Below the pieces are notes generated by a model. That model was given only the letters and a program-made list of their open reading frames with translations. It had not been told where the DNA came from and searched no databases. The position numbers and the translations under genes are program-made. Positions 5,386 to 59,785 of a DNA stretch of 64,000 bases are shown piece after piece (the first letter of the stretch is position 1; the number at the start of each line of letters is the position of its first letter). The stretch comes from a virus (lineage: Duplodnaviria > Caudoviricetes): positions 3,350 to 67,349 of the IMG/VR virus record IMGVR_UViG_3300021255_004360; one strand, given 5' to 3'.

Positions 5386-5387
5386 GA

Positions 5388-15267: not shown

Positions 15268-18200
15268 ATGGAACACATTTTCAAAAAAATACGTATAGAA
15301 GAAAGCAGAACCAGAACACCTGGTTTAATGCCATTTATTCCATTTAACCAAAAATTCGAAGATTGATTGGTTCCGACAGTTGATGGCGTTGTAAGTAACT
15401 GGGGTGGATTTCCAGGTGACTTTGAAGTAGATGGCAAGAAAGTGTCATACGCCACACTTATGAGAAAGTATTTTGAAATTCAGAAAATACTTTTGAATGG
15501 TATCAAGTTGAAGGAAACAAAGAAAACAAACAACAATTGTTTCTATACCGATAATATCAAAATATGGGATACAAACCCAAGTGCATATACGGTTTGTGAT
15601 ATTTCAAAGTTTGGTGTTAATGGCCGAAAACTATATTATATAAAAAACTTTTCAACCGCACAAACACAAGATGCGAAAATCGGTGACATTTGCTATTATG
15701 ACAACATGTATCAAGTTTATTATGGCAATGGCGAATGATTACCGATTAAGAATGAGGTAGTTTTAACAAACAGACTATCAGATTATATTTCCTGTGGCGG
15801 TTCTGCTACAAGGGAACTTGCAGAAGATGTTATAGGGGTATATATCATACCAGAAGAATGTAAAGCGGAAAGAACGCCAGATTTCCTATATTATACACAG
15901 ATACCACTATGAATATCTTTGCTAAAGTATTTGAAAAACAAAGGTATATGCTGTAATAATCAATACAAGATGTATGGTGGTGACTGTCTTCTCAATAAAC
16001 TTACAGGTTTTACAATCACACCGTCAGCATATGAACCAATAGTTCCATCCATAGAACTTCCACTATTTTTAAGACAAAATTATAGTAACATTGGTGTTTT
16101 AACAACATACGATGAGTCAATGGACTTTGACCCAACACTGCCAGAAAATCAAGGACTTTACCCAGAAAGAGTAAGTGGATTATCAATTTCAGCTGAGTCA
16201 AAACTAAAAACATTAAGGTCAAGAAAGAGAGTTTACAATGAGGATGGCACATTAGCCGATTATATCCTTGTTGATGGCGTGAGACGTGTCCCTTACGAGA
16301 TTGGAGGGGATGGTGCTGCTTCCGCTAACACCTTCAACACATATTATATTGGTGATGGAAGGTATGTTGGAGATTTCGTTACGAAAATTACATATTTTGA
16401 TGAGGATGGGAATGAAACAACGCCAGAGTTAGCAAAATATGTTGAGTTTGAATATGTAATTGGTGGCGAGTTTACTGGTGAAGGAATTATAGATGACGAT
16501 GAGTGCGAATTAACGTTTAATGGCATAGAAGAGGATACAATTATAAATATTCCTGGTAGCGGTGGAACGTTTCATTTTGAGGTTGACACGACTTGTAGTG
16601 GTGGGTGAACAGCTTATATTGTTGAATGTGAAGACGAATACCTAACATTAAAACACACGTATAATGTCACTGGTGAAACAGTACAGGATGAACAAGGAAC
16701 ACTTACAATAACAGGTATCAGTGGTTTTGGCTCAATTGAAGAGGTAAATGTAGAATCAAATACATGGTGGCGTTTGTTGGATATACCGAGTGATAGGCTA
16801 TCATTTTCAACCGATTATGGTGTTGATTTCAGAGATTTGTTTATTACTGTAAACCCGTATAATGCAGGTGCGGATATAGGAATAATACAAATAACCGCTG
16901 CAACTGTGCAATATGGCACAAATTATGAAAACACGAAATACATTGTACTTGAACAAGATTCAGAATACATCACAATTAGTGGTTATACAGCCTGTACCAC
17001 ATGGGAAACCCAAACAAGTGGCGCGACAGAAGAACCAGTACCGTTTGTGGTTGATTCAAGTTTTGTTGATTGGGAGGTTATTTCAAAACCAGATTGGTGT
17101 GTTGTAACGAAAGAGAGCAATACACAAATGAACGTTTCTTTGCTGACGAATGAAACGATACACCCAAGGGATGGTGTTATAACGATTGGTAAGAACGGTG
17201 TTTATGCCACATTGTCTGTTTCACAAGAAAAGGGTATTGCTTACTTAATTGATGTGTTCCAAATTGTTGAAATTGAAGATGGAATTACTGGCAAGAGTTA
17301 TGAGGACATATATCTTGATGGTAATGAAGAAGCGTTATTTGGTGTTGAGATTTATGACCTCGAACATTTAGACAGTCCAATATCACCAATACCAAATTGG
17401 GGTATGGTTGATATTTCTACAACGTTCAATAATCCAACAGTTACTAATGATTACATTACCATCGCCGAATCAGCGTTTACATTCACAAACATGTACACAG
17501 GTTCTGGTGAAGCATATGGTACTGTTCATGTTTTCATGGAAAATACTTTGAATTGTTCAGCCTCAACACAAACAATATATCTATCTAAATATGTGTTATA
17601 TGTAGCCCCAGCAACTGGTGAGTGTGAAGAGAAAAGAGACGCTGAATTGAGGGACTGTGATATAACGAATGGTAGTGTGTTGGATTTGTGTGATGAAACA
17701 GAACAGAATTTCAATGTTTATACAAATGTTGAAACTGGTTGGACGGTAGAAATAGAGTTTGGGCCGTATTTGTCAATTGACTATACTTCGTTAACGTATG
17801 ACTGTACGAGTACATATCAAAAAGCACATGTTGGTTCTAACATAACATGGAAATTTACTAAAGAGTATGTTGTCACAACGGGAAGTGTTGAGGACTATGA
17901 ATATATATGTCCAAATCCTGAAGAATGTGAACCAACATTGGAAGATAAGTTTGCTCAAATGTATTCGCTGGGGTATTTCGTTGAATGTGGAGAATATACC
18001 TATGTTCATATAACAGAAACACAATACAAAAACAGAGAAGATAGTGGTGAGACATACACAGAAGCAAGTACTGTTCCTGTGGAAAATATAACAGAAGAAA
18101 GTCCTGTGTATCTCAAGGTTGATAACAATTATTGGATGAAGATATTAACACCAGACTGGTGTACTGTCATCCCAGACAATGGTACAATGGATACAGAGGT

Positions 18201-42347: not shown

Positions 42348-45300
42348 ATGTCAAAGAAGGATGTTATTGAAACCAACAAACTCTATGTGGGTACTGGTGG
42401 CACGATTGATGGTCTGTACATCGGTTCCCCAACAGATGAATCAAGATATGCTGTTTTAACAGATGATAACGCACAAAAGACAGTTATTTACGACAAAGTA
42501 GAATATGAATTTGTTGTTGATGATATTGCAAACACAGTACCAGCAAACGGTGGTACGTATAATGTAACCGCAAGTATATCAAAGAAAACACATGGTGATG
42601 GAACGGTTGAAAGTCCGCTTCCATTTTCACCTACTTCTTTCACTATACCAGCAAATACAGGTGCATCGTATTCAAGTTCTGTAACAATTACCCAATCTGG
42701 TAGTGCTTTGATTGATGTTTGTGATTTTACAGTTGAAGCAGATTACGTTACAAGTTTGTCTTTGACACTCAACGCACCAGCCGTAATTCCTGCGTCTGGT
42801 GGTAGTGTAAACAGTACAACTTATACATTGGTAGCAAACTATAAAAGTGGTAGGGTTGTTAGTAACGTCAGTACCGCTACATTAGAATGAACTGGTGTAA
42901 CTGCTGGCTCAAAAGGAACAACAATTAGTAACCAAACTGATGCTGGTACTTTGAGAGCGCAAGCCACATTTGGTGGCAAAACAACAACGGCTACAGTAAC
43001 CGTAAAACAACAAGCCAACTATGTGACAGCTGTTGTTGCGTCTGGTAGTAGTTCTACAACACACTTTAGGTATGCTAACATTGGTCCTGCTGCCACATCT
43101 GCAAACATAACTGGACAAGGTGGTGGCGAATATACCTTCACGAGTGGTTCAAAATTGAATGATTCTTCTTCATCACCTTCATTTGGTGGTACAGCAACTT
43201 ATACAAGAAACGGATTTACGCTTGCATCCTCACAAAACGGATTTACGGCTGTTAATGCAACCTCAGGTAAATTAACTGCCACATCACTTGGAACAACAAT
43301 CAGTAATGCAAGAACTTCCGCTAATGTGTCTGGTAAATTGACTATTACGTACACTCACGCATCTGCATATAGTGCTGGTGGCACGGTAACAAGTCCTGCT
43401 TTTACATCAACAGCCACATGTACACAAACAGGTAACTATGTAACAGCAATAACAGTTTCAACAAGCCCAGCTGTTTCTTATAGTGAGTTCCATGCCAGTG
43501 GTGGAACAAAAAATGATGCTGGTACAGATGGTGTAATAACATATAAGTTTACAACAGCACAGGAAACAACAACAGCCCCTGCTGGCGGTACATTAACAAC
43601 CACACCTTCATATGCTATGACAAATGGTGGAGGTTTCTATTTGACAAACACAACCGCTGGTACTGTTAGTGCAGATACAAGAGGCACTACAAGTGGTGCT
43701 ACAAGAACCTCTAACACAATCACAAAAACAGTCAACTATTCTTTCGCACACTCATCAACATACAGTGCTGGGGGAACAAAAACCGCAAGCGCAACTGCAA
43801 CTGGAACAGCGACACAAGGTGAAAATGTTAGAACAAGCACCAACTATTCAGCTAATACATATACAGGCAGTGTGACAATTGGAAGTGGTTTACATGCTTC
43901 TGGTGGTAGTGCAACCGTAACATACAACGCTTGGCACACAGCATATGACCTATATACTTCAGGCGCATATAACAATAGCCACACAGTTTATGACCCTTGT
44001 AAGGTCACGATTACAACAAACGGAAACTCAAGGTTTAGTGGAAGTGGAACAAAGAGTACGGCAAGTTCTACGAACTCGACTTTTACATTGTCACACTCAA
44101 CTATGGGTACTACTGCAACTACGGACAATGTTACGGTAACTCTTTATAATACAACATATAGTTCAACAAGCGGTGTCAAGACTGCAAGTACGTCAGTAAC
44201 AAATGCAATCACAAATACCAATTACTCTGCCAACACATACACTGGTAGCGTTACAATTGGCAGTGGTTTACATGCTTCTGGTGGTAGTGCAACTGTAACC
44301 TACAATGCATGGCATAGTGCTTATGATTTATATACGTCTGGTGAATATAACAACAGCCATACAGTGTATGACCCTTGTAAGGTTACAATTACAACAAATG
44401 GTAACTCAAGATTTAGTGGTAGTGGTACAAAATCTACAGCAAGTTCAACAAATTCAACATTTACGCTAAGTCACACAACAATGGGTAGTGCTGTGACAAC
44501 GGATAATGTTACACTTACACTCTATAATACAACGTATAGTTCAACAAGTGGAGTTAAAACTGCAAGTTCATCAGTAACTAATACTTTAACGTACAAATAT
44601 CCTGCCATTACGAGCATTTCATATCCAGCACACGATGCAACAAGTGGTACTGTAACGCCTACAATTAAAGGTAGTTGTTATCCTACATACACTTCAACTG
44701 TTACTGGCGCACAAGTAACTAATATAACATTAACGGTTACAAGCGCATCAATGACTGCTGGAAATGGCGCAACAATTAACACATCTACTGGTGTTATCAC
44801 ATGGGCAGCAAATACAACAACAAGCCTTGACAGCCCAGCACCAGCCAGAACATCTAATACAGCAACACTAAACGTAAGTTTTGGCTCAACATATAGCAAC
44901 TTAACCGCAAGCGGTACTGCAACGGCAACACAAAATGCAGATGCAATATCAAGTACAGTTATTTCAAATCTTTCCGCTAATACCTATACTGCTTCAACAT
45001 CACCAGCACCTGCTGGACAGAGCACATTTACTTTAAGTGGTGGTAAGGCTACCGTTACTTATGTTTCTGGTGCTAAATTCTATCCTACTGCAACGTTGTC
45101 ATCATCATATCGTACTAGTTCAAGTTCTAGAAAAGTTACATTCAGTTCAACTAATATGACGAGCGCAACAACAAGCGTAACATGCACAGTCCCAAGTTTG
45201 ACTTATTCACATATAGCAGCAGGTTCCTATACCGTAACTTCAACATATGGTGGCGTTTCAAAAACTATTACAATATATCAAGCAGCAAATGGTGTGACTG

Positions 45301-48300
45301 GTATAACAGCGAATAACACAATATCTTACGCTCAAATACCAGCATCAGGTGGTACGGTTAATCCTACTGTATCAACAGCATACACGTTGCATTATGCTTC
45401 AACATATACAACACAGGGTTCGTCAGTTACAACATATGGTACAGTAAGTTCAACCACAAGTTATGCTATGACTGCTGGAAATGGCTTTTCATTGAAGTCA
45501 ACTTCAACGGGTCAGGTAAGTGCAACAACAAAAGGTACAACCGTTACTGGTGCTACAACTTCAAACACTGTGACAATGACAGTAAATTATACTTGGACAC
45601 CAGCAACATCTTATACATTTGGTTTTACAGAACAAACATGTACTGGTACTAAAACAACTAATGTAACACAAGCAGCAAACGCTGTCACGGCAACAGAATA
45701 CTCAACACCAACGATTACAAGCCCTACTGCTGGAGCATCAATTGGTACAATTCCTGCTGCTGGAGGTACGGTTACGCCTACAAAGACTGCAAGCCAGACG
45801 ATTACATATACATTTACATCTACCGCTACAAGTTCAAAGACAAATTCAACATTCACATGGACATCAGTGTTGACAAATGGTAACGGCTTCTACTTAACAA
45901 ATGCAACCAATGGTACAATTAGTGCGGCAACAAAAGGTACAACCGTTACGGGTGCTACAACGTCAAATACAGCCACATTATACGCATGGGCTAACGGAAA
46001 AACAGGTTCAACTACATATAAAGCAGTACAAGCAAAGAATGAAATAACTGGTTATACTGCTTATGAAACACCTTATGGCGGTACTTTCAGTGCAAGTTTA
46101 ATACCTGCAAGTGGTGGTACTTCAAATGTTACGTCAAATACAAGCTCTGTTAAACAAAAAAGAAAGGCTGTGTATAGTTCAACAGCAACCGCTGCAACCG
46201 CAACAGAATTCACACCAACATCAATTACAACTGGTGTTACAGGTAATGGTTCCGTTGCAAGCAAAGGTACAACCGTCTCAAACGAAACAACCGCAAAAAC
46301 ATTGACATGTTGGTATGCTGCAAATGGTGTTACTGCTTCATCAACGGTTTATGCATTACAACAAGCAAACTACGTAACTGTTGTACAGGCTTCAGGTACA
46401 ACCTCTGACTCACATTCACACTTCTCTTATGCTAATATTGCAGCAAAAACCACTACGGCCACCCCTACTTTGGCTGGAACCGCAGTATATACTTTCACAA
46501 GTGGTTCAAAACAGACAAGTAATTCAACAACGCCATTTGGTGGTACTGCGACATACACGAGAAGTAATTACACGCTTGCTGCTTCACAAAACGGATTTAC
46601 GGCAGTAAACGCTTCTACTGGTGTATTAACCGCTACTGCTCGTGGTACTACAATTGGTAATGCCAGAACATCAGCGAATGTAAGCGGTGACTTAGTAGTA
46701 ACATACACACACGGTGCTTCATACAGCAATGGTGGTACTGTGACAAGTTCAGCATATACCTCAACCGCTACTTGTACACAAACAGGTAACTATGTGACTG
46801 CTATTACTTTGACAACAAATCCTGCTGTTACCTATGCTGCTATTCCAGCAAGTGGTGGAAGTGCAACAGATAGCGGTTCGAATGGGGTTTTAAGATATAC
46901 ATTCACGTCAGGTAGTTATACTGCAACTAAACCTTCAACAACATATGGAGCCTTAACTTCTGCTGCAACATACACAATGGAAAGTGGAAATGGTTTCTCT
47001 TTGACAAATGCAACAAATGGTACGGTAAGTGCAACAACGAAAGGCACAACGGTCTCTAATGTTACTTCATCTGAAACCGTTACAAAATCTATTACTTACA
47101 CTTGGACACCTACCACATCATATAATGCTGCTGGAACGATAACAAAAACAAGTAGTGCTACTGGAAAAGCAACACAAGCAGCGAATAATGTTGCTAGTTA
47201 TGTCGGTTACACAACACCAAGTGGTTACACATTCAGTGGAACACAAGTACCAGCGGCTGGTGGTACTTCAACAATTACATCAACTGGTACTTTGTCACAA
47301 AAGGCTTATCCAGTATATAATTCAACAGCAACTGGTTCATCGTTAGTGAACGTTACTGGCACAGTTACAACGGGTGTTACTGGAAATGGTGCAATTGCAT
47401 CAAAAGGTACAACTGTTTCAAATGTAACAACAAACGCAAAAACCGTTACTTGTTGGTACGCAGCAAATGGTGTTACTGCAACATCATCTCTCAATATTTC
47501 ACAAGCAGCAAACTATGTTGTTACAGTTCAGGCTTCAGGTACAACCTCTGGCTCACATTCACACTTCTCTTATGCTAATATTGCAGCCAAAGCAACATCG
47601 GCCAGCCCTACTTTGGCTGGAACCGCAGTATATACTTTCAGCAGTGGTTCAAAAGAGACAAGTAATTCAACAACACCATTTGGTGGTACAGCAACATATA
47701 CAAGAAGTAATTATACACTTGCATCCTCACAAAACGGATTTACAGCCGTAAATTCAAGCAATGGTACGCTTACTGCAACTGCTCGTGGTACGACAATTGG
47801 TAATGCTAGAACATCAGCGAATGTAAGTTGTGATTTGGTTGTTTCCTATACACATGGTTCAAGTTATAGTGCTGGTGGTACTGTGACAAGTTCTGCGTAC
47901 ACTTCAACCGCAACCTGTACACAAGAAGGAAACTATGTAACTGCAATAACGGTTTCAACAAATCCTGCTGTTACCTATGCTGCTATTCCAGCAAGTGGTG
48001 GCAGTGCAACTGATAGTGGTACTAATGGTGCTGTAACTTATACATTTAGCAGTACAAGTACGTCAACAAGCGCTCCAGCATCAACATATGGCTCTTTATC
48101 CATAACCAAAACTTATTCAATGACGAATGGTAATGGTTTTACATTGAAGGATGCAAGTACTGGCCAGGTAAGTGCAACAACAAAGGGTACTACTGTAACT
48201 GGCGCAACTAATTCGAACACGATTACAAAAGCAGTTACTTACACATGGACACCTACTACATCATACAATGCTGCTGGAACAAAAACAGCAACAAAGAATG

Positions 48301-51300
48301 CAACTGGTACTGCATCACAATCAGCTAATGCTGTAACAAGTACAACGTGGGGTAATGTAACAATTACTTCACCTACTGGTGCTTCCCTTGGTGAAATTCC
48401 AGCAGGTGGTGGTAGCAAGACACCAACTAAAACCGCAACACAAAGTGGTACAAATCACTACACATCTGGTGCAGAATCCACAACCTCCAATAACTCCTTT
48501 ACTTGGTCCGTTGCTTTTACAAACTCTGGTAATTACACGTTAAAGAGTTCAACAACAGGCGAAATTAGTGCAAGTACAAGAGGAACAACGACTGGCAATG
48601 CAACAACTTCCAACACAGCAACAATAACTTGTACTGGTGCTGGAAGCAAAACCGCTACCGCAACCTATTATGTAACACAACAGGCAAATGCTGTAACAAG
48701 TACAACATGGGGTAATGTAACAATCACCTCACCTACTGGCGCATCGCTTGGTGAAATTCCAGCAGGTGGTGGTAGTAAAACACCTACAAAGACAGCAACA
48801 CAAAGCGGAACAAATCATTATACATCTGGTGCAGAAGCTACAACATCAAACAACTCATTCACCTGGTCTGTTGCATTTACAAACTCTGGTAACTACACAC
48901 TGAAGAGTTCAAGTACTGGTGAGATTAGCGCAAGTACAAGAGGTACAACAAGTGGTGCAACAACAACATCTAATACCGCTACAATAACTTGCACAGGTGC
49001 TGGAAGTAAGACAGCAACCGCAACTTATTACGTAACACAACAAGCAAATAATTATACGGATACTTGGAACAATCCTGTGATTTCCTCACCAACCGCAGGT
49101 GCTTCACTTGGTGAAATCGCAGCGAGTGGCGGTAGCAAGACACCTACGCTTACAGCCACACAAAGTGGCACGAGAACGTGGACTTCAACATCAACGTCTG
49201 CAATTACGAATACGAACTTTACATGGGTTGTTACATTTACAAACTCTGGAAACTATACGTTAAAGAGTTCAACTACTGGCCAAATCAGCGCTTCCACAAG
49301 AGGTACTACAAGTGGTGCTACAACGACTTCAAATACAGCAACTGCCAAATGTACTGGTAGCGGTAGTAAATCAGCATCTACAACCTACTATGTAACACAA
49401 GCAGCAAATACTTACACGGATTCTTGGAACAATCCTGTGATTACATCACCAAATGGTGCTTCAATTGGTGAAATCCCAGCAGGTGGTGGTAGCAAGACAC
49501 CTACACTCACAGCCACACAAAGTGGTACGAGAACATACGCATCAACTGCAACGTCGGCGATTACCAATACGAACTTTACATGGTCTGTTGCATTCACAGC
49601 TTCTGGTAATTTCACATTGAAAAGCGCAACTACTGGACAAATCAGCGCCGCAACAAAAAGCACAAATGTTTCTAACACAACAACCTCAAATACTGCCACC
49701 GCAACATGTACTGGCTCTGGAAGTAAGACAGCAACTGCGACCTATTATGTAACACAGCAGGCTAACTATATCGTGACTGTTACACCGAAAGCCACCGCTT
49801 CTGGAAATGGAAAACACTTCTTTTATAACAATATTGCTGCATCTGCAACAAGCGCAGCTGTTACAAAGTCTGGTAGTTGTGATTTGACATATACAAGTGG
49901 TGCAGTAAACTCAAGTGTTGGTTCATATGCTACAAGTTCATATACTAGAACTTACACACTTGCAGCATCACAAAACGGTTTCACAAAAGTTAACGCATCT
50001 ACTGGTGCATTAACAGCTACGGCACGTGGTACGACAATCGGCAATGCTAGAACCTCTGCAAACGTAACAAGCGTTCTAACCGTTACTATCACACATAATA
50101 GCACGTATAGCGCTGGTGGTACGGTTACAGGTTCAATGACTTCTGTCACTACCTGTACACAAGAAGGAAACTATGTTACTGGCTTAACAGTTGTAACAGC
50201 CCCTAGTGTTGGATATCCTCTTATTCCAGCCTCTGGTGGTACTGTATCAGAAACTGGCAATAACGGTACAGTAAGATTCGCCTATAGTAGTAATAGCACT
50301 GGTACAACAATACCAAGTTCAACATATGGTACTTTGACTACACCTAAAACATATGCCATGACTAATGGTAATGGTTTCTCTTTGACAAATGCAACAAATG
50401 GTACGGTAAGTGCAACAACGAGAGGAGCAACTACGGGTACAAGTCGCACCTCATCTTCAATCACAAAGACTGTTACCTATACTTGAACACCTACCACATC
50501 ATACAATGCTGCTGGAACAAAAACTGTTACAGGAACAGGTACTGGTACTGCTACACAACAAGCAAATGCTTACACAGATATATGGAATTATCCATCCTTG
50601 AGCCTCGTAAATGTCAAACTTGGCTCAACACTTGCTGCTGGTGGTGGTAGCGCAACATTATCAATTAGTACCGTGAAGAGTAATTTTACACAAACTGGCA
50701 GAAGAAGATATACATCTGGTTCTGAAGAAAATATTAGTAATAGTGGAAGTGGAAGTGATGTTTCTGTAAGAGGTACAATGGATAATGGTAATGGTTTTGT
50801 ATTATTAACATCTGATACAATTACAGTTAGTGCAGTTACGAAGGGCACAACAGTAACTGGTCAAACAACTTCAAACACAATCACAATTATTGCTGTTGGT
50901 AAAGATAACAAGGCTTGCACAGGCTCTTGTTATTCTGTACAGGCTGCTAATGCTGTAACAAATACCGCGTATGGTGACATCACTGTGTCACAACCATCAA
51001 GTGGTAGTTCGATTGGCGAAATTCCTGCATCTGGTGGTACTATAACGCCTTCAATAAAGGCTGCAAGTCAGACTATTACATATACATTTACATCTACTGC
51101 CACAAGTTCAAAGACGAATTCAACGTTTACTTGAACGGCTACGATGACAAATGAGCGTGGTTTCTATCTAACGAATGCCACCAATGGTACTGTTAGCGCT
51201 GTAACAAAAGGTACAACTATAACTGGCGTAACCACTTCAAATACTGTTACATACAAAGCTGTTAATGGTGGTAAAACTGGTACAACAACATATTATGTAA

Positions 51301-53600
51301 CACAACAAGCAAATGCAGTTGTTGGATACTTTGATTACCAAGCACCATCTGGTGTTACGTTTGCTGCTGCAACAGTTCCAGCATCTGGTGGAAAACCAGT
51401 TATTACACCAGATACATCAAATGCAACAACAAAAGCAAAAGCAATTTATACAAGTAAAGCATCAGGAACATCATATACAACATTAAATAACGTTACTGGT
51501 ATCACAACAGGTACTACGACAGCATTGCCAACCGTTGCAAGTAAAGGACTTGTATATACCAGTGCCGTGACAAATAACGTTGCACAAGTAACATGTTGGT
51601 ATGCTGCTGGTGGAAAAACTGGTGCGACTGTAAACGTGAAAGTCAAACAAGCAAGAAACCGTATTGCCAGTGCTAGACTTGAACAAACTGATAGCACTAA
51701 GCCATTGTATTATTTTACAGGCGATGTTCCAGCAAAAGGAAGTCATTATGTTTTACCAGGTGTTTCTAATTCACATGTTGTATATGTAATGGATAGTGGT
51801 GCGGAAGGTACAAAATCACAAATATTGAGCGTTTCGCCTACTCCATATGAATGAACGGAAACAGTAAAATATTATAGTGGTTCTGGGGAATATGATACAT
51901 ATAGTGGACCAGACTATGAAACAACTTATGGTAATGACAAGGGTACAGCCATCTCCAATCGTACACTGTTGGCTACTGTGTGGCAAAAAACTTCTTCTTT
52001 GATAAGGTATAACACTTATTCCGATGTGGTATTCAATAATTCGGGTTCACCGCTTGTGGCTGAGGCTGCTGTCTATCAAGAGGGTAATTATGTCACTGCG
52101 TTTACATGCAGTAGTGGTAGTATTAGCGTAAGTTTTCGCGGTTCAGGAACTTCGTATCGTTTTCGTGCATCAGGAGAGACGAAAGGTGACTATTATTCTG
52201 GGAATAGCCCTTATTTTAGTTTCACAAGATTTTACTTCACCAGTGGTGATTGAACATACACACAACCTTCAGCAACATATGGTATAATGCAAACAGCAGT
52301 AACATATACAATGGAAAATGGTAACGGTTTCACATTTAACCCTAATACAAAACTTTTAACAGCAGAATCAAAAGGTACAGTTGTATCGGATATCACGTCT
52401 TCAAATACTATAACTAAGTCTGCCGTTGCTACGTGAATACCGACTGCAAACTATACTCCAGCCAACATGCCAAATGGTGGACTAATCAGTTCTACCGCAA
52501 GTTCTGTTACAACTCAAGCAACGCAAGAAGCAAATGCAGCAACTTCAACTAGTGGTCGTACACTCTACGCATCTGGTATTTCTGGCTATAATTATTCGAT
52601 GACAGTAAGTTCTGATACTGGTACTACGGTAGCTAAGGCCATGCCATCTGCACAAACTGGAAGCTTTAGAATTAGTTTCACTGGCCAATGTTCAACAAAA
52701 AAATGAACACAATACCAGAAGTGAACTAAGTACACGTCAACCGCTACTGGTTATACGATACAGCCAATAGAATATTCTAGTACTACAAATACGGTAAAAG
52801 ATAGTTATGTGGCGTTACCTACAACAATTGTGACAACTGGAAACACAGCCGTTGAATCGCCAGTACATGGTACTACATCGTGAACAAGACCATATTATAG
52901 GTGTAAGAAAAATCCTACAACATCAGTAAGAACGCATGCTTTTGTTGGTTATATATTGGACCCATCTGATAGTGGTATTACCGCATATACACATCCACAG
53001 TTGTTAATTTACCAAAAGGCTGGTACTGGAACTACGAGTTGTTCACCACAATGTACATCAAATGCTTCAAGCGCAACATATTCTGGTGGCCCTTGTACTT
53101 GTAACTCAGTTGCTTGTATACAATGTACATCTGACTATTATGGGCCATGTGGCAGTCAATGTACGTGTCATGCTGTAAATTGTCAAACACAATGTGATTG
53201 TAATGGTGTTGCTTGTAGTCAATGTCTGTCAAAGGCTGCTTGTACTTGTGATAGTGAATCTTGTAGTCAATGTACTTGCAACACAGAATCTTGCGCTGGA
53301 TATTGTACTTGTGATGCTGTAACGGATACCAGTTGTACATGCAACACCGTTGGTTGTGCACAATGTACTTGTGATACTGTTGCTTGTGTACAATGTACTT
53401 GCGATGGACAAACTTGTGCTGTGTGTACGGCTGATGGCGGGTGCAAACCATATTGCTCTTGCGATACCGTATGTACTGAGACTTGGAAGAGCACTTATTG
53501 TAACGCACATCAGACACATGGATGTAACATGTACAACTGTAGTGTGTATGATGGGACAGGAACTTGTTCTTGCAACTCCGTATGCCCAACTAATAATTAA
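42348..53600 (+). CDS. Giant Thr/Ser-rich fibre-like protein with a C-terminal Cys-rich domain (3750 aa; 9 TGA)
   Basis: TGA at 42888, 50484, 51132, 51852, 52251, 52434, 52704, 52722 and 52881, all in the frame of ATG 42348; I read the gaps and found no TAA/TAG before 53598. About 120-aa modules with IPA.GG, (K/R)GTT and TQ.AN. Confidence 0.85.
43839..44590 (+). repeat. Tandem duplication of a 126-aa module
   Basis: Copies start at 43839 and 44217 (TNYSANTYTGSVTIGSGLHASGG...); about 8 amino-acid differences by manual count. Confidence 0.9.
48324..49760 (+). repeat. Four tandem modules of about 120 aa
   Basis: AN.....W.N..I.SP.GAS.GEI.A.GGSKTPT.TATQSGT...CTG.GSK.A..TYYVTQ units starting at about 48324, 48684, 49044 and 49401. 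Confidence 0.9.
53040..53600 (+). other. Cys-rich CxC-repeat domain forming the C-terminus of the giant fibre
   Basis: 42 Cys in 186 aa and 11 CxC motifs. Shares CAGYCTC, QCTSD, TCAVC and CNSV with the next gene. Confidence 0.85.
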
Positions 53601-53626
53601 ATTATAAACATATAACATAAAAAGAA

Positions 53627-54478
53627 ATGGCAAAAATTATAGATGAATACGACATCAATGATGGTATTTTGTTAGGTGCGGATGGCTGTTGTGAGGGTAT
53701 TGATATGTGCGATAAATGTGCAGACGATACATGTCTTGATTGTGACACTGATTGTTCTTGTGATAGTCAATGTACACATTGTCAGGGTGAGGGGTGCGAC
53801 TGTAATGACCCAACTGGCCCAATGGGTGAATGTGACCGTGACAATAGCTGCGCTTGTGATGGATATTGTGCTTGTGATGTTTATTGCTCAAAATGTACAG
53901 TACACACAATATGTGACTGTGATGGCGGTGTTTGCAGTTGCGATTCTGTTTGTTCTCCACAAAACGCAACCACATCTGGATATTGTACTTGTAATGGCCA
54001 ATGTACATGCAATGCAGTTTCATGCGCTCAATGTGCCTGTAATGCACAAAGCTGTACAGCACAATGTACTTGTGACGCTGTTTCGTGCACGGCTTTCTGT
54101 GATTGCGATGCTGTTTCATGTGCTGGATATTGTACATGTAATGCTAAAAGTTGTGGCCCAAAATGTACGTGTGATAGTGTTAGTTGCAGCAAATGTACAA
54201 ATCATGGTGCATGTTCCTGTGATACTGACCCTTGTCCACATTGTTTGTGTAATATTCACGTTTGTGCACAATGTACTGCAACTGAATGTACTTCACAAGC
54301 CATATGTGATTGTAACTCTGTTGGTTGTGTACAATGTACTAGTGACGGTGCATGTCCAAGCGTATGTCCAACACAGGTTATGTGTATGTGTCACGAGCAA
54401 GATACTTGCACGTGTGATGTACAATGTACTTGCCACGCTAAAACATGTGCTGTGTGTAACTGTAATGCAGAAGAATAG
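53627..54478 (+). CDS. Cys-rich repeat protein, putative radical-SAM substrate (RiPP-precursor-like; 283 aa)
   Basis: 68 Cys and 20 CxC motifs after a 20-aa Cys-free acidic N-terminus (MAKIIDEYDINDGILLGADG). A-rich start context; ends TAG; adjacent to the rSAM/SPASM gene. ORF is secure; function is inferred. Confidence 0.75.
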   Translation: MAKIIDEYDINDGILLGADGCCEGIDMCDKCADDTCLDCDTDCSCDSQCTHCQGEGCDCNDPTGPMGECDRDNSCACDGYCACDVYCSKCTVHTICDCDGGVCSCDSVCSPQNATTSGYCTCNGQCTCNAVSCAQCACNAQSCTAQCTCDAVSCTAFCDCDAVSCAGYCTCNAKSCGPKCTCDSVSCSKCTNHGACSCDTDPCPHCLCNIHVCAQCTATECTSQAICDCNSVGCVQCTSDGACPSVCPTQVMCMCHEQDTCTCDVQCTCHAKTCAVCNCNAEE

Positions 54479-54526: not shown

Positions 54527-56113
54527 ATGGATGTATTTTCACAACCAGTTGGATATGCTATTAATTTTTTAGGTGGCCAACAGAAAAGAGACGATAGTGT
54601 AAAGTATCGTAGATTAAAATATTTAGTAGATGTTGATTTAGAAGATAACAGAAAAGCAATCTACAATTTGTTAACCAGTTGTGGTGTTGTTTTGAATCAA
54701 GACGAGTTGAAACAGATAGAGGATTTTAAGAAAGACTCAATTTGTGTTAACTATTTGATTGAGAATTATTTCTTCGTACCAGAGGATTATGACGAGAAGG
54801 CTGAGGTAGATAAATACAGAGAAGAATCTGTTATCAAAAAGAAAACATTCTTGGTCACACCAACTGAGTTTACTATTTTACCAACTACGGATTGTAATGC
54901 CAGATGCTTTTATTGTTTTGAGAGGGGCAAAAAAATAACCGTCATGACAATGGATATGGCAAATAAAGTTGCTGATTATATTATAGATTGTTGGAATAAA
55001 ACCAAAGAGACGATTGTTCTAAGATGGTTTGGTGGCGAACCACTATACAACATGAAAGCAATTGATGTCATTTGTAAGCGGTTAACAGAGAATGGTGTTG
55101 ATTTCAAATCAAGTATCATATCCAATGGTTATCTGTTTAGTGAGGATGTAGCAATAAAGGCTGTCAACGATTGGAAAATGACACACGCACAAATAACGTT
55201 GGATGGTACAAAAGATGTTTACAATAAAACAAAGAGTTACATTTATGATGATGAGAATCCGTTTGAGGTTATTATGCGTAACATGGAATCCATGTTGAAA
55301 GCTGGTTTCGGTATAAGCATCAGAATGAATGTTGGTACACATAACGGTGATGATTTGAAAGAGTTGGTATCATATCTTAATGAAAGGTTCAAGAATGATA
55401 TGAATCGAAAATTCTCTGTATATGCTCATCCAATATTTGAAACTGGTATGGATGATGAAACCAAGAGAACGCCAGAGGAACGTGCATTGGTTTATCAGAA
55501 ACTGGAAGAATTGGAACAACACATGAAGAGTATTGGCATTTCATTAGGTATAGGAAGGTTAGGCGGTTTAAGAACAAGACACTGTATGGTGGATGGTGGA
55601 AAAGCCATACTTATTCTACCAGATGGAAAACTTGGACTATGTGAACATTATACCGATTCTGAATATTTTGGACAACTTGGAGACGATAGAGAATCCTGGG
55701 ATTGGGGAGAGATTAAATCCTTGGTAGAACAGACAGATATGTTACCAGAATGTGGTGATTGTGTTCTTTATCCTACCTGTTATAGATTGAAGAAATGCTT
55801 GGATGAAATTTTCTGTGACAAGTATGTTGTTGATTGGACAATGAGGCGTACAATAGAGAATATCAAAGCAAAAATAAACTCATTCTATAAGAATGCGAAT
55901 AACAATTGTTCTTGTGGGAACAACCAAACACCAAGATATGATTTATATGCTGGCAAGATAGAGTTCAACAACCTTATTTCTTTTGTTATGCTCCAAGAAG
56001 CAAAAATCAAAAGAATTAGTGAGAAATTAGGCATTGATTTTAGCGATTTAGACACGGAATATAATGAAAAACAAAAGAATGTTCCGAAACAAGGAACACA
56101 AAGTCAAGAATAA
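54527..56113 (+). CDS. Radical SAM enzyme with SPASM domain, peptide-maturase type (528 aa)
   Basis: CNARCFYC (CxxxCxxC), WFGGEPL, SNGY and QITLDG. SPASM CMVDGGKAILILPDGKLGLC (C-x13-G-x4-C) then CGDCVLYPTCYRLKKC...C. About 110-aa N-terminal extension (IYNLLT...YLIENYFFVPEDYDE) sits where RRE domains usually occur. Confidence 0.92.
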   Translation: MDVFSQPVGYAINFLGGQQKRDDSVKYRRLKYLVDVDLEDNRKAIYNLLTSCGVVLNQDELKQIEDFKKDSICVNYLIENYFFVPEDYDEKAEVDKYREESVIKKKTFLVTPTEFTILPTTDCNARCFYCFERGKKITVMTMDMANKVADYIIDCWNKTKETIVLRWFGGEPLYNMKAIDVICKRLTENGVDFKSSIISNGYLFSEDVAIKAVNDWKMTHAQITLDGTKDVYNKTKSYIYDDENPFEVIMRNMESMLKAGFGISIRMNVGTHNGDDLKELVSYLNERFKNDMNRKFSVYAHPIFETGMDDETKRTPEERALVYQKLEELEQHMKSIGISLGIGRLGGLRTRHCMVDGGKAILILPDGKLGLCEHYTDSEYFGQLGDDRESWDWGEIKSLVEQTDMLPECGDCVLYPTCYRLKKCLDEIFCDKYVVDWTMRRTIENIKAKINSFYKNANNNCSCGNNQTPRYDLYAGKIEFNNLISFVMLQEAKIKRISEKLGIDFSDLDTEYNEKQKNVPKQGTQSQE

Positions 56114-56200: not shown

Positions 56201-56632
56201 ATGGAAGGAAAAAAACATAGCATATCTATAGGAGAAAATCTTTATAAGGATTTGAAAGAATATTGTGAACTTAATTCGTTGAAAATGAATGAGTTTGTAG
56301 AATCTTTGTTGAAAGATGCGTTTATGGTTGAGAAATATGGTGATGCACCGTTCTTTACAAAACCAAACATTAGTGAGTCAGAAGTAAAACGGGAAACAAT
56401 TGTTGCTGTTCCACTTAAATCGGATGTTGTTGACAGCAACGGTAGAATATATACGGAACAAGCAATTTCGGAAGCCCTTAAAAACTTTAAACAAGAAACA
56501 CAAATTACAGTTAACGAAAACACAGGGGAAGTGTTTTTAGACACAAACCATACATCAGTACAAGAGGTGACGATTCCAGAGAAACAAGTTACAGAAAACA
56601 AACCAAAAAGGAAAGTAACCAAATTAAAATAA
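56201..56632 (+). CDS. Hypothetical protein with a possible ribbon-helix-helix N-terminus (143 aa)
   Basis: KKHSISIGENLYKDLKEYC...MNEFVESLL fits a beta-alpha-alpha pattern. Confidence 0.5.
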   Translation: MEGKKHSISIGENLYKDLKEYCELNSLKMNEFVESLLKDAFMVEKYGDAPFFTKPNISESEVKRETIVAVPLKSDVVDSNGRIYTEQAISEALKNFKQETQITVNENTGEVFLDTNHTSVQEVTIPEKQVTENKPKRKVTKLK

Positions 56633-56635
56633 AAT

Positions 56636-59044
56636 ATGGCTAAAAAACAGCAAATAGTAATAGGAAAAAATGCTCAGGTACGTATTCAATGGAACGTATC
56701 TTCGGTAGATTACACCGATGAAAAGAAAGATGCGATAAGGGAATTATTCGCCAAAAAATACAATTTACCAGTTTCCAAGGTGAAAGTGGAGCCTAATTTT
56801 ATGACTGGTATTTGTGGTGAGGAAATATCACTTAACAAGGACACCATACAGAACATCAATGACCCGAAATTCCATCAGCAATTATATGTGCAGTATTTGG
56901 AAGATAAGAAAGCAAAGGGTGAGATTGAGGATTATGATTTGGATGAAATTTTAAAAATTGACAGCCAGATTAATACCCTTATTGATTTCAGTACTTATGA
57001 TAAAGGTAGGAGATATACTTTAAAGTGGCTTGATTGGGATAATTTTTTGGCTTTCGGTGAGGGCAACCATGTTGATTTCACGGACTTTAAAGGCTTGATT
57101 TTACTGAACAGTATTCCAGACAATCAAGGTGGTAAATCAACATTTGCTTATGACATATTACATTTCCTTTTCTTTGGTAGAACCAATTCTGGTAAGATGA
57201 AAGTGCTTGATAGGGCATTTAATCGTCATCTTCCAGAGGCTAGAAAATGTAAGGTAGAGGGGTGTATAGAAATTGATGGACTTAACTATATTATTAGGAG
57301 AACATTAACACGTAGTGCTTATAACGGTAAGAACGCTACAAGGACGGTAACGCAAAAGGTAGAGTACTTTAGAGTGCTTGATAATGGCGAGTTGGAAGAA
57401 TTGGAAGATATTGATAATCTCAATGAGCAAACCAGTGTAAAGACCACGCAAGCCATTAAGGAAGCAATCGGTAATGAAAGGGACTTCGACCTTGTTATTT
57501 CTGCTAATTCAGATAACTTGAAGGAACTTATTTCTCTTAAAGATACTGAGAGAGGCAGATTGTTAAGTCGCTGGATTGGTTTGCTCCCATTGGAAGATAA
57601 AGACATTAAAGCCCGTGAGAAATGGAATAAGGAAATCAATGTAAATCGTTATTGCACAAGATATAATAGTGAAGTCGTAAAACAGGAAATTGAAAACCTT
57701 ACTGCTCAGAACGAGGAAAACGAAAAACAAATCAAGAAATATGAGAAGATTGTTAGTGATTGTGAAGAAAAGATTAAGAAAGAAAATGTAACAAAAGATG
57801 CACTTCTTTCATCAAAGAAAACAATTGACAATAACTTGATGAAGGTTGATGTGCATACATTGGAAACGAGAATTGCTGACATCACACAACAAGGATTGAA
57901 AAAGACGGCAGAAAAAAAAGCACATGAGTCTGTTATTGAACAGATGAAAGATGTTAAAATTGTTGATGAAAACGTTTACGGTGAATTGAATAAGAAACAT
58001 CAGAAATGTGTTGAGTATATCGCTTCTTTGAAGTCTGATATTAAAAACTTGAGAGATACAAACAAAAAACTTACAGAAAGTGAATATTGTCCTACTTGTA
58101 AGAGAAAATTTGAAAATGTAGATAATAGTGCTATCGTTAAGCAAAACGAAAAACTTATATATGACAAGATTCAAGAAGGAATTATGATAAGTGAAGAAAA
58201 AAAGAATCTTGAAACAGAGTTAGCCAAACTTGATGAAGCCAGAAAACTTTATTATGAGAAGAACAAACATGAATTAGCTGTTTCGCAGTGCAATGTTGAA
58301 ATTGAGCGTCTTCGGAATGAACTTAAAGACTGTAACGCAACGAAGAAGGAGATAATAGCAAATAAGTCTGCTATTGAAGAAAACAACAAGATTGACAACG
58401 CCCTCAATATTGCAAACGCCAATATCAAAAATGAAGAAAACATTAGAACAAGCGCAAAAGAAACAATAGTTGCTTTTAAGAAAGATATTGAACGGAATAA
58501 CACAGCCATCACAGAACGACAGATTGTGATAACCAAGATAGAGGAAGAAACAAAAATCGAAAAGAACTGGAAGATATACCTTATGCTTGTTGGTAAAGAT
58601 GGCGTTGGTAAGATGGTACTTAGGCACACATTACCTATTATCAATAGCGAACTTCACAGAATTCTTGAAGATGTTTGCGATTTTGATGTTGAGGTTACTA
58701 TGAATGAGAAAAATGATGTCGATTTCATTTTAATCTGTAAAGATGATGGTGTAAGGCAAGAATTGTGTGCTGGTTCTGGTTTCGAGCAAACCGCAGCAGC
58801 ACTTGCATTGCGTGTTGTATTAGGCAACATGAGTGCTTTGTCAAAGCCTCCGTTCCTCGTCCTTGATGAAATTTTAGGTGGTGTTGCGAAGGTAAATTAT
58901 GATAATATGAGAAAACTTTACGAGAAAATTTCCCAATATTATAAATTTATAATGCAAATAACCCATTTAAGCGACATTGCTGATTGGCACGATAGAACCA
59001 TCACAATAGTCAAGAAGAATCATGTTTCCAGGGTTGAGTTGTAA
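56636..59044 (+). CDS. SbcC/Rad50/T4 gp46-like SMC-family recombination ATPase (802 aa)
   Basis: Walker A NQGGKST, coiled coils, zinc hook CPTC, signature-like GSGFEQ, Walker B LVLDEILG and H-loop ITHL. Confidence 0.9.
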   Translation: MAKKQQIVIGKNAQVRIQWNVSSVDYTDEKKDAIRELFAKKYNLPVSKVKVEPNFMTGICGEEISLNKDTIQNINDPKFHQQLYVQYLEDKKAKGEIEDYDLDEILKIDSQINTLIDFSTYDKGRRYTLKWLDWDNFLAFGEGNHVDFTDFKGLILLNSIPDNQGGKSTFAYDILHFLFFGRTNSGKMKVLDRAFNRHLPEARKCKVEGCIEIDGLNYIIRRTLTRSAYNGKNATRTVTQKVEYFRVLDNGELEELEDIDNLNEQTSVKTTQAIKEAIGNERDFDLVISANSDNLKELISLKDTERGRLLSRWIGLLPLEDKDIKAREKWNKEINVNRYCTRYNSEVVKQEIENLTAQNEENEKQIKKYEKIVSDCEEKIKKENVTKDALLSSKKTIDNNLMKVDVHTLETRIADITQQGLKKTAEKKAHESVIEQMKDVKIVDENVYGELNKKHQKCVEYIASLKSDIKNLRDTNKKLTESEYCPTCKRKFENVDNSAIVKQNEKLIYDKIQEGIMISEEKKNLETELAKLDEARKLYYEKNKHELAVSQCNVEIERLRNELKDCNATKKEIIANKSAIEENNKIDNALNIANANIKNEENIRTSAKETIVAFKKDIERNNTAITERQIVITKIEEETKIEKNWKIYLMLVGKDGVGKMVLRHTLPIINSELHRILEDVCDFDVEVTMNEKNDVDFILICKDDGVRQELCAGSGFEQTAAALALRVVLGNMSALSKPPFLVLDEILGGVAKVNYDNMRKLYEKISQYYKFIMQITHLSDIADWHDRTITIVKKNHVSRVEL

Positions 59045-59071: not shown

Positions 59072-59785
59072 ATGCCTATTAAAAAGAGAGTTGTGGTCGA
59101 TGATTATGATTCACAACAAAAAAGATATTTTGATGAAATTTCAAAAACAAAACCACTAACAAAAGAAGAAGAATTTTTACTTTGGAAAGATTATAAAGAG
59201 AACAAAAACATAGAAGCAAGAAACAAATTAGTAGAAGCAAACCTTAAGTTTGTAGCAACAATTGCCAACTCATATAGAGGACGTGGTTTATCATATTCTG
59301 ATTTAATCGCAGAAGGTAATATCGGGCTTATTAGAGCCGTAGATAAGTTTGAAGCCACGAGAGGATATAAGATGATAAGTTACTCTGTCTGGTGGATAAG
59401 ACAAGCGATATTGGAGGCCATAGAAAAAAGAAATAATATCAATGGCGATGAACTACCAAAAGATTATGAAGACCAAGTACCTGATGAAGATGAAAGCACG
59501 TATTTTAGTAAAGAAGAAACCCCTTCAAGATTCGTGGACGATGAAGATGATAAAACGGATAAAAAACAAGCAATTGCTGAGTTGTTAAATGTTTTGGATG
59601 ACCGCGAGGCTGAAATAATAACAAGATATTATGGATTACTTGAAGACCCAATAAACTTAGAGGACATTGGTAATGAGTTGAATTTAAGTAAAGAAAGGGT
59701 TAGACAAATAATGGAAAAGGGGCTAAAAAAAATGCGCAGTGCTTATATGGAACGACAAAGTTTTGTGAGGATAAACAGAAACTAA
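59072..59785 (+). CDS. Sigma-70 family RNA polymerase sigma factor (regions 1.2, 2 and 4; region 3 reduced)
   Basis: LTKEEE...[30 protein letters not shown]...[17 protein letters not shown] and [18 protein letters not shown]. Confidence 0.9.

Follow-up and report, generated by a model that had tools for sequence, protein, structure and literature searches.

In the window, a 64,000-nucleotide stretch of DNA from a phage of the Caudoviricetes, three genes follow one another on the + strand. The first (42348..53600) encodes a repeat protein of 3750 amino acids, presumed to be a tail fibre or adhesin, in a single frame with nine TGA codons read as Trp. Its last 186 residues (53040..53597, + strand) form a C-terminal Cys-rich domain that has 42 cysteines and 11 CxC motifs followed by Asp, Asn or His (CxC[D/N/H]). 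The second gene (53627..54478) encodes a free Cys-rich protein of 283 amino acids with 68 cysteines and 20 CxC[D/N/H] motifs. Both Cys-rich segments were defined from the translations and with a motif script; for counting, 42348-53600 was translated with TGA as Trp and 53627-54478 with the standard code. The third gene (54527..56113) encodes a radical SAM/SPASM enzyme of 528 amino acids, recognized by Pfam, NCBIfam and its predicted model.

The sequence supports reading the TGA codons of the fibre gene as Trp. There is no TAA or TAG in the frame over 11.2 kb; TGA alone interrupts it. Internal repeats place a TGG-encoded Trp opposite two of the TGA codons, and the TGA at 52881 pairs with a Trp in a relative, P0122, that was called under the standard code. 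We found no suppressor tRNA on the 67-kb contig. The initial annotation had called the Cys-rich end a fibre tip. The frame that joins this end to the giant protein holds up, but the identity as a fibre is suggested by genomic context only, that is, by a baseplate wedge match at 5388-7352, upstream of the gene. The protein itself had no family match in Pfam or PHROG. A scan of genes near the locus gave no strong match to a protease or an exporter; 56201-56632 gave weak, sub-threshold protease matches only. These phages come from the rumen, which is anaerobic. RNA-library contigs from one sheep gut run are identical to parts of the enzyme gene, but DNA carry-over could account for these matches, so they are no proof of transcription.

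The CxC motifs in this phage follow a strict rule. It had been claimed that all 31 (11 in the fibre and 20 in the free protein) are followed by Asp, Asn or His (28 D/N and 3 H), and our script gave the identical count. In the fibre, where all 11 CxC motifs lie within the last 186 residues, the next residue (the slot) is, in order, N, H, N, D, N, D, N, D, D, D, N. In the free protein it is D, N, D, D, D, D, N, N, N, D, D, N, D, D, N, N, H, D, H, N. The totals are 15 D, 13 N and 3 H. D, N and H together make up 21% of the non-Cys residues, and the chance of 31/31 is ~1e-21. When Cys positions were kept in 20,000 shuffles, the maximum was 16 of 31 slots with D, N or H. The other cysteines are followed mostly by T, S or A, and Cys-rich antisense frames elsewhere in the window have no rule after CxC.

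The Cys-rich repeat is regular, 10-11 residues long, with a Thr conserved between the two cysteines of CxC. The core unit that had been proposed, C-x-C-[D/N]-x3-C, fits 19 of the 31 motifs; 8 of the 31 have x2-C instead. Copies of the repeat are only 60-78% alike in DNA. Thus, the pattern is kept up at the protein level and does not come from recent tandem DNA duplication. The strain variants listed inside the two segments number 25, of which 9 change a residue and none falls at a Cys or at a slot D/N. Cysteines make up 23-24% of both domains, CxC and CxxC spacing is dense, and Tyr is present. D or N lies three residues after the Cys (i+3) for 37 of the 110 cysteines, and D, N, E or Q for 54 of 110. 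D/N frequency is 34% at i+3 compared to 10% at i+4, and D/N/E/Q account for 49-78% of the residues three positions after a Cys. In this phage, cysteines outnumber D/N by about three to one, so a different role is needed for most of them.

By sequence, the free protein is a paralogue of the fibre C-terminal domain (BLASTP, 39% identity, E = 4e-16), and it has orthologues in three related loci (L001, L002 and L138). Its Cys-free N-terminus is not conserved; the relatives start with CICN. It had no match in Pfam, NCBIfam or PHROG, and single-sequence structure prediction gave no usable fold (pLDDT 35). A phmmer search of 1.8 billion representatives returned two weak matches: P0122, which is a relative's fibre tip, and P0123. 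We judged P0123, on a eukaryote-like contig, to be irrelevant. Compositional correction probably hides true relatives in this search. A word-indexed search found no longer fused forms of the array, and a search of the ESM Atlas gave no usable match. The Cys content and CxC density fit those of metallothioneins; the size (metallothioneins are below about 10 kDa) does not, Tyr is present, and no Pfam or NCBIfam model matches. The candidate substrates, one a protein of 283 aa and the other the C-terminal part of a protein of 3750 aa, also do not have the form of short, leader-bearing ranthipeptide precursors.

The enzyme matches Radical_SAM and Fer4_12 in Pfam. TIGR04463 is the top of 40 matching RiPP-maturase families (138 bits, E = 3.6e-40, enzyme residues 34-418), and the nearest families (TIGR04463, Clo7bot, CefB and PapB) are all maturases of Cys peptides. 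The score is far under the curated NCBIfam cut-off of 525 bits for TIGR04463, so function is extrapolated across a large distance. The PapB family NF047865 gave 78 bits (cut-off 340), and TIGR03906 (44 bits) and TIGR04115 (62 bits) were weak. The CxxxCxxC motif is C123/C127/C130, and the SPASM-type cysteines are C353, C372 (with G367 four residues before it), C409, C412, C418, C424 and C430. All ten are invariant in 34 homologues and fit the pattern predicted for a radical SAM motif plus two auxiliary clusters.

The predicted model of the enzyme (pLDDT 86 overall) has an RRE-like N-terminal domain at about residues 23-110, with strands at 27-56, helices at 58-100 and pLDDT > 88. The closest solved structure by sequence is CteB (PDB 5WGG, 5WHY; E = 5e-19, identity 13-16%), and in a fold search CteB reached Z 21-22 over model residues 30-453. 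anSME, the maker of formylglycine, tied with CteB at Z 22, and SkfB, SuiB and EpeE matched too. CteB and TigE carry an RRE domain, whereas anSME does not. Alignments to CteB and TigE begin at model residue 23-30, indicating that the match includes the N-terminal RRE-like domain; alignment to anSME begins only at residue 111. Together, the family matches and the model support placing the enzyme in the thioether-forming, RiPP-maturase branch of radical SAM/SPASM proteins. By sequence comparison, it is a distant relative of thioether synthases of the CrpC, CteB and PapB type.

We found that relatives of the enzyme in other phages also have Cys-rich neighbours. Scanning IMG/VR with an alignment-based query gave 12 loci; a single-protein query gave nothing. 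There was no close relative in GenBank phages (best identity 27%). Homologues of the enzyme number roughly 2,200 in all. A Cys-rich segment adjoins the enzyme relative in every phage locus examined, over 28-99% enzyme identity. The coupling of enzyme and array is thus kept in distant phages as well. The adjacent segment is present at 54-99% enzyme identity (L138, L001, L002 and L140) and at ~41% (L006, L003, L142 and L143). In L007 and L015 (36-37%), the enzyme is upstream of the segment, not downstream. The neighbours are short peptides in L014, short Cys/Asp-rich peptides in L012, and Cys-rich C-terminal tails in L008, L009 and L011. The coupled loci cover phages that use TGA=W, TAG=Q and the standard code, and both gene orders. 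A homologue from Ruminococcus (39% identity) has no obvious Cys-rich neighbour, so an array next to the enzyme may be a phage-specific arrangement. Two CxC[D/N]x3Cx2 units, back-translated into a DNA pattern, matched 119 loci in IMG/VR. Those that passed a Cys-density filter were all simple tandem DNA repeats or unrelated low-complexity frames, none with the enzyme.

The rule after CxC is looser in the relatives than the strict grammar described for this phage. The slot is D or N in 74% of 214 motifs from related phages, and the rest are mostly Y, E, H and Q; Gly is never found there. L007, L015 and L142 have Y and H at the slot. In orthologous columns of the fibre domain (P0121, P0122, L001 and L002), the slot residue toggles while the Cys is fixed. 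Toggling among D, N, Q, E, H and Y would also fit a polar structural residue or a metal ligand. We know of no single characterized ranthisynthase that accepts all six.

We observed directly the grammar, the class and architecture of the enzyme, and the conserved adjacency of enzyme and array. The arrays are likely the substrate of the adjacent enzyme, and the product is probably a thioether. That the link runs from Cys(i) to the D/N at i+3 is a tentative assignment, with a little less than an even chance of being right. Taken as a whole, and by analogy with known systems, we somewhat favour the notion that the CxC[D/N/H] arrays are substrate motifs for enzyme-made thioether (ranthionine) staples on a virion adhesin. 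Acting in the anaerobic cytoplasm of the host, the enzyme would remove a hydrogen from a carbon in the side chain of the residue at i+3 relative to a Cys. That carbon would then join the Cys sulfur to form a ranthionine bridge, with an acceptor that here would be mostly Asp or Asn. Repeated along the array, this would make many small rings that staple the fibre C-terminal domain and the free paralogue. The second Cys of CxC may link to the residue at +5, a position filled by V, Q, E, D or N in some 75-85% of motifs, giving overlapping rings. Because thioether rings are redox-insensitive, they would suit a particle that comes from a reducing cytoplasm and is released into a reducing rumen, where disulfides are unreliable. 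Thioether chemistry could coexist with metal binding or disulfides.

Several observations run counter to stapling. They include the low TIGR04463 score, the toggling of the slot residue, the surplus of cysteines over D/N and the low pLDDT of the free protein. The fibre-fused domain has no N-terminal leader for RRE binding, and relatives of the free protein lack its Cys-free start. In addition, anSME equals CteB in fold score.

The spacing of the proposed link has a precedent. CrpC, a member of TIGR04463 from Methanococcus voltae, puts ranthionine links on the 28.8-kDa repeat protein CrpA, joining Cys to i+3 at CAVD, PCAGD, CAGM and CPLV, within a repeated C-X-X-Q/D (PMC13692751). The initial annotation had offered two registers. 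Cx2[D/N], read from the first Cys of CxC, agrees with these C-x-x-D/Q sites (PMC13692751); the alternative, [D/N]x3C, is not conserved across lineages. The CX3D spacing of PapB and the NxxC spacing of NxxcB, which had been brought in as models, are not enriched in these arrays (D/N at i+4 is the 10% given above).

The likeness to CrpC and CrpA extends to the whole cluster. In both, a radical SAM/SPASM enzyme with an RRE lies beside a large protein with a repeated, C-terminal Cys motif that contains C-x-x-D/Q. Both clusters have a second related gene (CrpB there, the free paralogue here), and the family of CrpC is the top match of the phage enzyme. There are also differences. By the NCBI rule, the phage enzyme is not a member of TIGR04463 (138 vs 525 bits). 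The repeat of CrpA is 17 residues, whereas that of the phage is 10-11 and has CxC doublets. The phage candidate substrates can hold as many as 138 cysteines in one domain; they are joined to giant virion-type proteins of the BACON/Ig-like kind and share no N-terminal leader domain. The system here is phage-encoded.

Other thioether systems are partly similar. QhpD, a radical SAM/SPASM enzyme, makes Cys-Asp (beta-carbon) and Cys-Glu (gamma-carbon) thioethers in QhpC, a protein subunit and not a secreted peptide; a single enzyme takes Asp as well as Glu. In contrast to the phage arrays, QhpC has three links and no repeat array and is the small subunit of a cellular enzyme, and the related families TIGR03906 and TIGR04115 are the weak ones noted above. 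PapB (freyrasin, six CX3D repeats) and NxxcB link Cys to the beta-carbon of Asp or Asn, respectively, but in short secreted peptides with leaders. CteB, whose fold match includes the RRE-like domain, also forms thioethers; it links Cys to the gamma-carbon of Thr in the 45-residue SCIFF peptide and is only 13-16% identical to the phage enzyme.

The best of the alternatives, which we consider unlikely, is that the arrays are metal-binding chains, with CxC thiolates as ligands, the slot D/N/H/E/Q/Y as an extra or second-shell ligand, and few or none of the motifs modified by the enzyme. The high Cys content and dense CxC and CxxC are as expected for such chains, and all the slot residues (D, N, H, E, Q and Y) carry O or N donors. 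Tips of the T4 fibres gp37 and gp12 bind metal through repeated short motifs, a textbook precedent. The gp37 needle has HxH iron sites, in which a short motif with two ligands recurs along the distal end of the fibre; it uses His and not Cys, has no modifying enzyme, and is an analogy only. The authors of the CrpA study suspect a metal-related role for the modified protein as well (PMC13692751). However, metal binding gives no reason for a RiPP-type maturase to have remained next to the arrays through deep divergence and rearranged gene order. There was no match to metallothionein or another family, and Asn and Gln, although common at the slot, are poor ligands for thiophilic metals. Metal binding also does not exclude thioether formation.

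It is less probable that the enzyme does other chemistry on the arrays: sactionine (alpha-carbon) thioethers, conversion of Cys to formylglycine, epimerization, or C-C or C-O cross-links through slot Tyr or His. The anSME tie and the matches to SkfB, SuiB and EpeE fit this notion, as do the Y and H at the slot in three loci. The best family and structure matches, including the RRE-like domain, are nevertheless to thioether synthases, and the pairing of Cys with Asp, Asn, Glu or Gln agrees with the ranthionine acceptors of QhpC, freyrasin and CrpA. The recognition motif of anSME, C/S-x-P/A-x-R, is absent from the arrays.

A structural disulfide ladder or tight solenoid, with D/N as a turn-forming residue and the enzyme unrelated to the arrays, seems quite improbable. 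The regular repeat, the fixed Cys and the conserved Thr inside CxC would suit such a fold, and the beetle antifreeze protein, with 12-residue TCT repeats, is a solenoid analogue. In contrast, phage particles are put together in a reducing cytoplasm, and these phages inhabit the anaerobic rumen, so that disulfides could not be relied on; the slot is never occupied by Gly, which is the other classic turn residue; and the conserved adjacency of the enzyme would have no explanation. Spontaneous Cys(i)-Asn/Gln(i+3) internal thioesters, acting as reactive warheads for covalent attachment by the fibre tip, have the identical spacing to the CGEQ motif of complement C3 and alpha-2-macroglobulin and would be at home on an adhesin, but are very improbable, as Asp, His, Tyr and Glu are about equally frequent at the slot and cannot lose ammonia to form a thioester, and no radical SAM enzyme would be needed.

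We return to enzyme-made thioether staples. To our knowledge, nearly all radical SAM thioether chemistry has so far been linked to small peptides that are secreted. It was first proven on a large Cys-rich protein in September 2026, with CrpA from a methanogen (PMC13692751). In the literature on phage radical SAM enzymes together with cysteine-rich proteins, ranthipeptides, thioethers or virions, we found no such system described, and the phage system, as read from sequence, would probably be the first radical SAM thioether system that acts on a protein of the virus particle. More broadly, and as a conjecture we hold a little short of evenly, large recoded phages from ruminant and other gut-type metagenomes might, with radical SAM enzymes of their own, staple the distal domains of fibres and BACON adhesins directly with tens of thioether rings in place of disulfides. 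The free paralogue would then be a second stapled adhesin that docks at the tip; alternatively, it would help by bringing the fibre domain, which lacks a leader, to the enzyme.

If true, a structural protein of a virus would carry a RiPP-type modification, with ranthipeptide arrays at the scale of whole proteins. The same logic would operate in phages at the distal ends of giant fibres and of BACON adhesins, whose role is clear. The motif rule (CxC then D/N; more broadly, Cys with D/N/E/Q at i+3) provides a handle for mutagenesis and for mining. If confirmed, compact repeat scaffolds with many enzyme-made rings would be available for protein engineering, and Crp-type systems would have a concrete, testable biological role. 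For the phages, confirmation would mean a new viral way to harden or shape receptor-binding parts where disulfides are unreliable.

We found that the Cys-rich arrays at the end of the presumed fibre and in the adjacent free protein are, judging from sequence and gene neighbourhood, most likely substrates of the radical SAM enzyme encoded beside them. The three genes lie in order on the + strand. The fibre gene (42348-53600, 66 Cys) ends in a Cys-rich domain, here called the tip (53040-53597), that makes up its last 186 residues and holds 42 of the 66 cysteines. It is followed by the gene for the free Cys-rich protein (53627-54478; 283 aa, 68 Cys) and the gene for the enzyme (54527-56113; 528 aa). 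The tip and the free protein are paralogues (39% identity, E = 4e-16). A baseplate wedge match (5388-7352) and a run of giant repeat proteins indicate that the region is a tail module. Since the 3750-aa protein has no family match in Pfam or PHROG, "fibre" is a presumptive name. In one piece of it (46848-51347), residues 651-730 weakly match the Pfam domain of cytolethal distending toxin A/C (ricin-type lectin-like). The match has no single significant stretch and probably reflects a sugar-binding, beta-trefoil-like repeat.

The phage appears to read TGA as Trp. The fibre frame has nine internal stops, all TGA, with no TAA or TAG across 11.2 kb. Under the standard code the region appears fragmented; with TGA as Trp it encodes a single protein of 3750 aa. 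Internal paralogous repeats (TYTW-TPTTSYNA and SKTNSTFTW-T) have a TGG-encoded Trp where two of the TGA codons stand, and the TGA at 52881 corresponds in alignment to a Trp of P0122, a fibre-tip relative called under the standard code. One TGA is at codon 181 and eight are in the last 1040 codons; codons 182-2712 use only TGG. Across the window, many long + strand genes are whole only under code 4. No suppressor tRNA was found on the 67-kb contig, which is the whole assembly. Bovine and sheep gut metagenomes (more than 10 studies) contain near-identical DNA, as does a 384-kb contig. Downstream of the enzyme are genes for a 143-aa protein (56201-56632) with weak, sub-threshold matches to XkdF/S78-like proteases, an 802-aa SbcC-like protein (56636-59044) with a Rad50 zinc-hook-like stretch, and a putative sigma-70-type factor (59072-59785), assigned by synteny only: the equivalent gene in a related locus (L002) and in the 384-kb contig carries Sigma70_r2/r4. 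A glycoside hydrolase family 2 gene lies near the locus, on the opposite strand, in the relative L140 (2872-4350) and in the 384-kb contig. It may be carried by the phage or mark a junction with host DNA.

The initial annotation had claimed that every CxC motif, 11 in the fibre and 20 in the free protein, is followed by Asp, Asn or His, and a scripted count reproduced this. All 11 motifs of the fibre are in its C-terminal domain, and the residue right after CxC (the slot) is D in 15 of the 31 motifs, N in 13 and H in three. These residues make up 21% of non-Cys positions, giving a chance of ~1e-21 for 31/31; of 20,000 shuffles with the cysteines fixed in place, the best reached 16/31. After the other cysteines, an internal control, the next residue is mainly T, S or A. 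Cys-rich antisense frames of Thr/Ser-rich genes in the same window showed no residue preference after CxC. The proposed core unit, C-x-C-[D/N]-x3-C, describes 19 of the 31 motifs; eight have x2-C instead. The repeats have a period of 30 or 33 bases, and copies are only 60-78% alike in DNA, which argues that selection on the protein keeps the pattern. We also placed contigs from three DNA runs on the locus. The 25 single-base differences listed in the two Cys-rich segments include nine that change a residue, and no Cys or slot D/N is among the residues changed; the differences that fall in Cys codons (three) and in a slot Asp codon (one) are all silent. The sample is small and the differences point in the expected direction.

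The enzyme matches Radical_SAM and Fer4_12 in Pfam and 40 families in NCBIfam. The top-scoring ones comprise maturases that act on Cys-containing peptides: TIGR04463 (138 bits), Clo7bot (114), CefB ("Cys-every-fifth"; 101), FlmE/OhkG (100), geopeptide (85) and PapB (78), all far under their respective cut-offs. Aligning 34 homologues showed that the three cysteines of CxxxCxxC (C123, C127, C130) are invariant, as are seven others downstream of them, which is consistent with a SPASM domain that would hold two auxiliary clusters. Among solved structures, a profile search ranked the thioether synthase CteB highest (E = 5e-19), ahead of SkfB and SuiB. An AlphaFold model built on the same alignment was confident (pLDDT 86), and TigE and CteB were its top Foldseek ranks. 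Both align from model residues 23-30 to ~453 (Z 21-22), including an N-terminal strand-and-helix domain. In contrast, anSME, which does not have that domain, aligns only from residue 111, with the same Z. The domain order is thus an RRE-like domain, a radical SAM core and SPASM. Beyond SPASM is a C-terminal extension of ~95 residues (432-528) with predicted long helices and a low-confidence linker (460-480), covered by no match in the structure searches.

That the enzyme acts on the arrays as its substrate is supported chiefly by the fact that the two remain adjacent in other phages. More than 2,000 homologues of the enzyme are present among metagenome proteins, and we examined the neighbourhoods of a subset. 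In a close clade (L138, L001, L002 and L140; enzyme identity 54-99%), a giant protein with a Cys-rich end is followed by a free Cys-rich protein and the enzyme. At ~41% identity, L006 has genes for a protein of 2655 aa, a Cys-rich protein of 151 aa and the enzyme; two TAG=Gln phages, L003 and L143, each encode a ~700-aa BACON-domain protein with 42 CxC, then two radical SAM proteins (421 and ~480 aa); and L142 encodes a Cys-rich protein of 434 aa (5269-6573; 94 Cys, 35 CxC), whose gene follows a fibre gene bearing Phage_fiber_rpt and Peptidase_S74 and precedes two radical SAM genes. L142 and L143 were picked for contig size alone, with their content unseen. The order is reversed in L007 and L015, huge contigs from IMG/VR (254 and 435 kb; 36-37% identity): there the enzyme comes before a BACON protein of 952 or 832 aa, in which up to 138 Cys fall within 607 residues. 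More distant loci have short peptides with CxC[D/N] (L014; 34% identity), or, at 28-36% identity, 700-830-aa proteins with short Cys/Asp-rich tails (L008, L009, L011) or short Cys/Asp-rich peptides (L012). For a Ruminococcus homologue (39% identity), no Cys-rich neighbour was found. Among the phage loci examined, adjacency outlasts deep divergence, three genetic codes and a change in gene order.

Two of these loci have additional genes. Directly upstream of the BACON/Cys-rich gene, L003 (1959-2513) and L143 (4010-4564) have a gene for a papain-like protein of 184 aa (Peptidase_C1; C39_2 matches faintly). This protein could be a processing protease, and the extra radical SAM protein could be a second modifying enzyme; neither is present at the window's locus. 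In L143, ~6 kb downstream of the radical SAM pair, there is also a gene for a reverse transcriptase (RVT_1; 15574-16542) that may belong to a diversity-generating retroelement.

The grammar is looser in the relatives. Across 214 CxC motifs in related loci, the slot is D/N in 74% and almost all the remainder is Y, E, H or Q. L142 and L143 add further slot residues of the same kinds, including, at five positions in L142, TAG codons read as Gln, an allowed residue there. In orthologue alignments the Cys columns are nearly invariant while the slot toggles among D, N, Q, H, E and Y. Strict D/N/H is thus a property of the window's lineage alone, and the family rule is a polar residue, mostly D/N. 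Only three positions are fixed across lineages: the two cysteines of CxC and the slot.

The initial annotation had cast D/N as a thioether acceptor, in a Cx2[D/N] or a [D/N]x3C register. The second is weakened, since that spacing is not conserved in L003, L007 and L015. Offsets +4 and -3 from Cys, those of the precedents it cited (PapB CX3D and NxxC), are not enriched. With any Cys as the anchor a wider rule emerges: at the third residue after it (i+3), D/N/E/Q account for 49% in the window, 53% in the close clade, 78% in L003, and 47% in L007 and L015 (plus 27% H/Y). Motif residue +5, which is i+3 of the second Cys, is V, Q, E, D or N in ~75-85% of motifs. The tip has 20 candidate C-x-x-[D/N/E/Q] sites, and the free protein has 34.

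The i to i+3 register has an experimental precedent. In Methanococcus voltae, the 28.8-kDa CrpA is modified by CrpC, which belongs to TIGR04463 and has an RRE and three iron-sulfur clusters; ten copies of a 17-residue Cys motif containing C-X-X-Q/D make up the C-terminal half of CrpA (Dieter et al., ACS Bio Med Chem Au, September 2026; PMC13692751). Losses of 2 Da were located at CAVD, PCAGD, CAGM and CPLV by mass spectrometry with alkylation and deuterium desulfurisation; the links behave as ranthionine (side-chain carbon), not sactionine, and Cys is N-terminal to the acceptor in every link (PMC13692751). Processing was partly kept without the leader or RRE, and a second gene, CrpB, increased yield (PMC13692751). 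These results lend experimental support both to the Cx2[D/N] register of the initial annotation and to processing of a large protein without a leader. TIGR04463 is also the best family of the phage enzyme, but the two enzymes are only distantly related.

The phage enzyme most likely makes a thioether from Cys to a side-chain carbon of residue i+3. D/N would be the preferred acceptor, with Q, E, H and Y tolerated. We infer that the carbon radical would be stabilised at a beta-methylene beside a pi system in D, N, H and Y, and at a gamma-methylene beside a carbonyl in E and Q. Several observations count against this reading: the low family score of the enzyme, the approximately threefold excess of Cys over D/N, the lack of a conserved leader, the equal fold scores of anSME and CteB, and the toggling of the slot among D, N, Q, E, H and Y, which a metal ligand or a structural polar residue would also explain. 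The rival explanations are not mutually exclusive, and metal binding may well occur alongside cross-links.

Stapling by thioethers would be redox-proof, which would make sense for an exposed adhesin domain that is made while the cytoplasm is reducing and then acts in the anaerobic gut. For the free paralogue two roles are conceivable, that of a further stapled adhesin or a helper role like the one proposed for CrpB. We found no description of such a phage radical SAM/Cys-rich system in the literature, and the CrpC/CrpA paper does not mention phages (PMC13692751). The interpretation of the initial annotation is supported in part and is now sharper, with an i to i+3 register and a looser grammar in relatives. 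This system is most likely a Crp/Qhp-type installation of protein thioethers; what is new relative to Crp/Qhp would be that it is encoded by phages and fused to virion adhesins.
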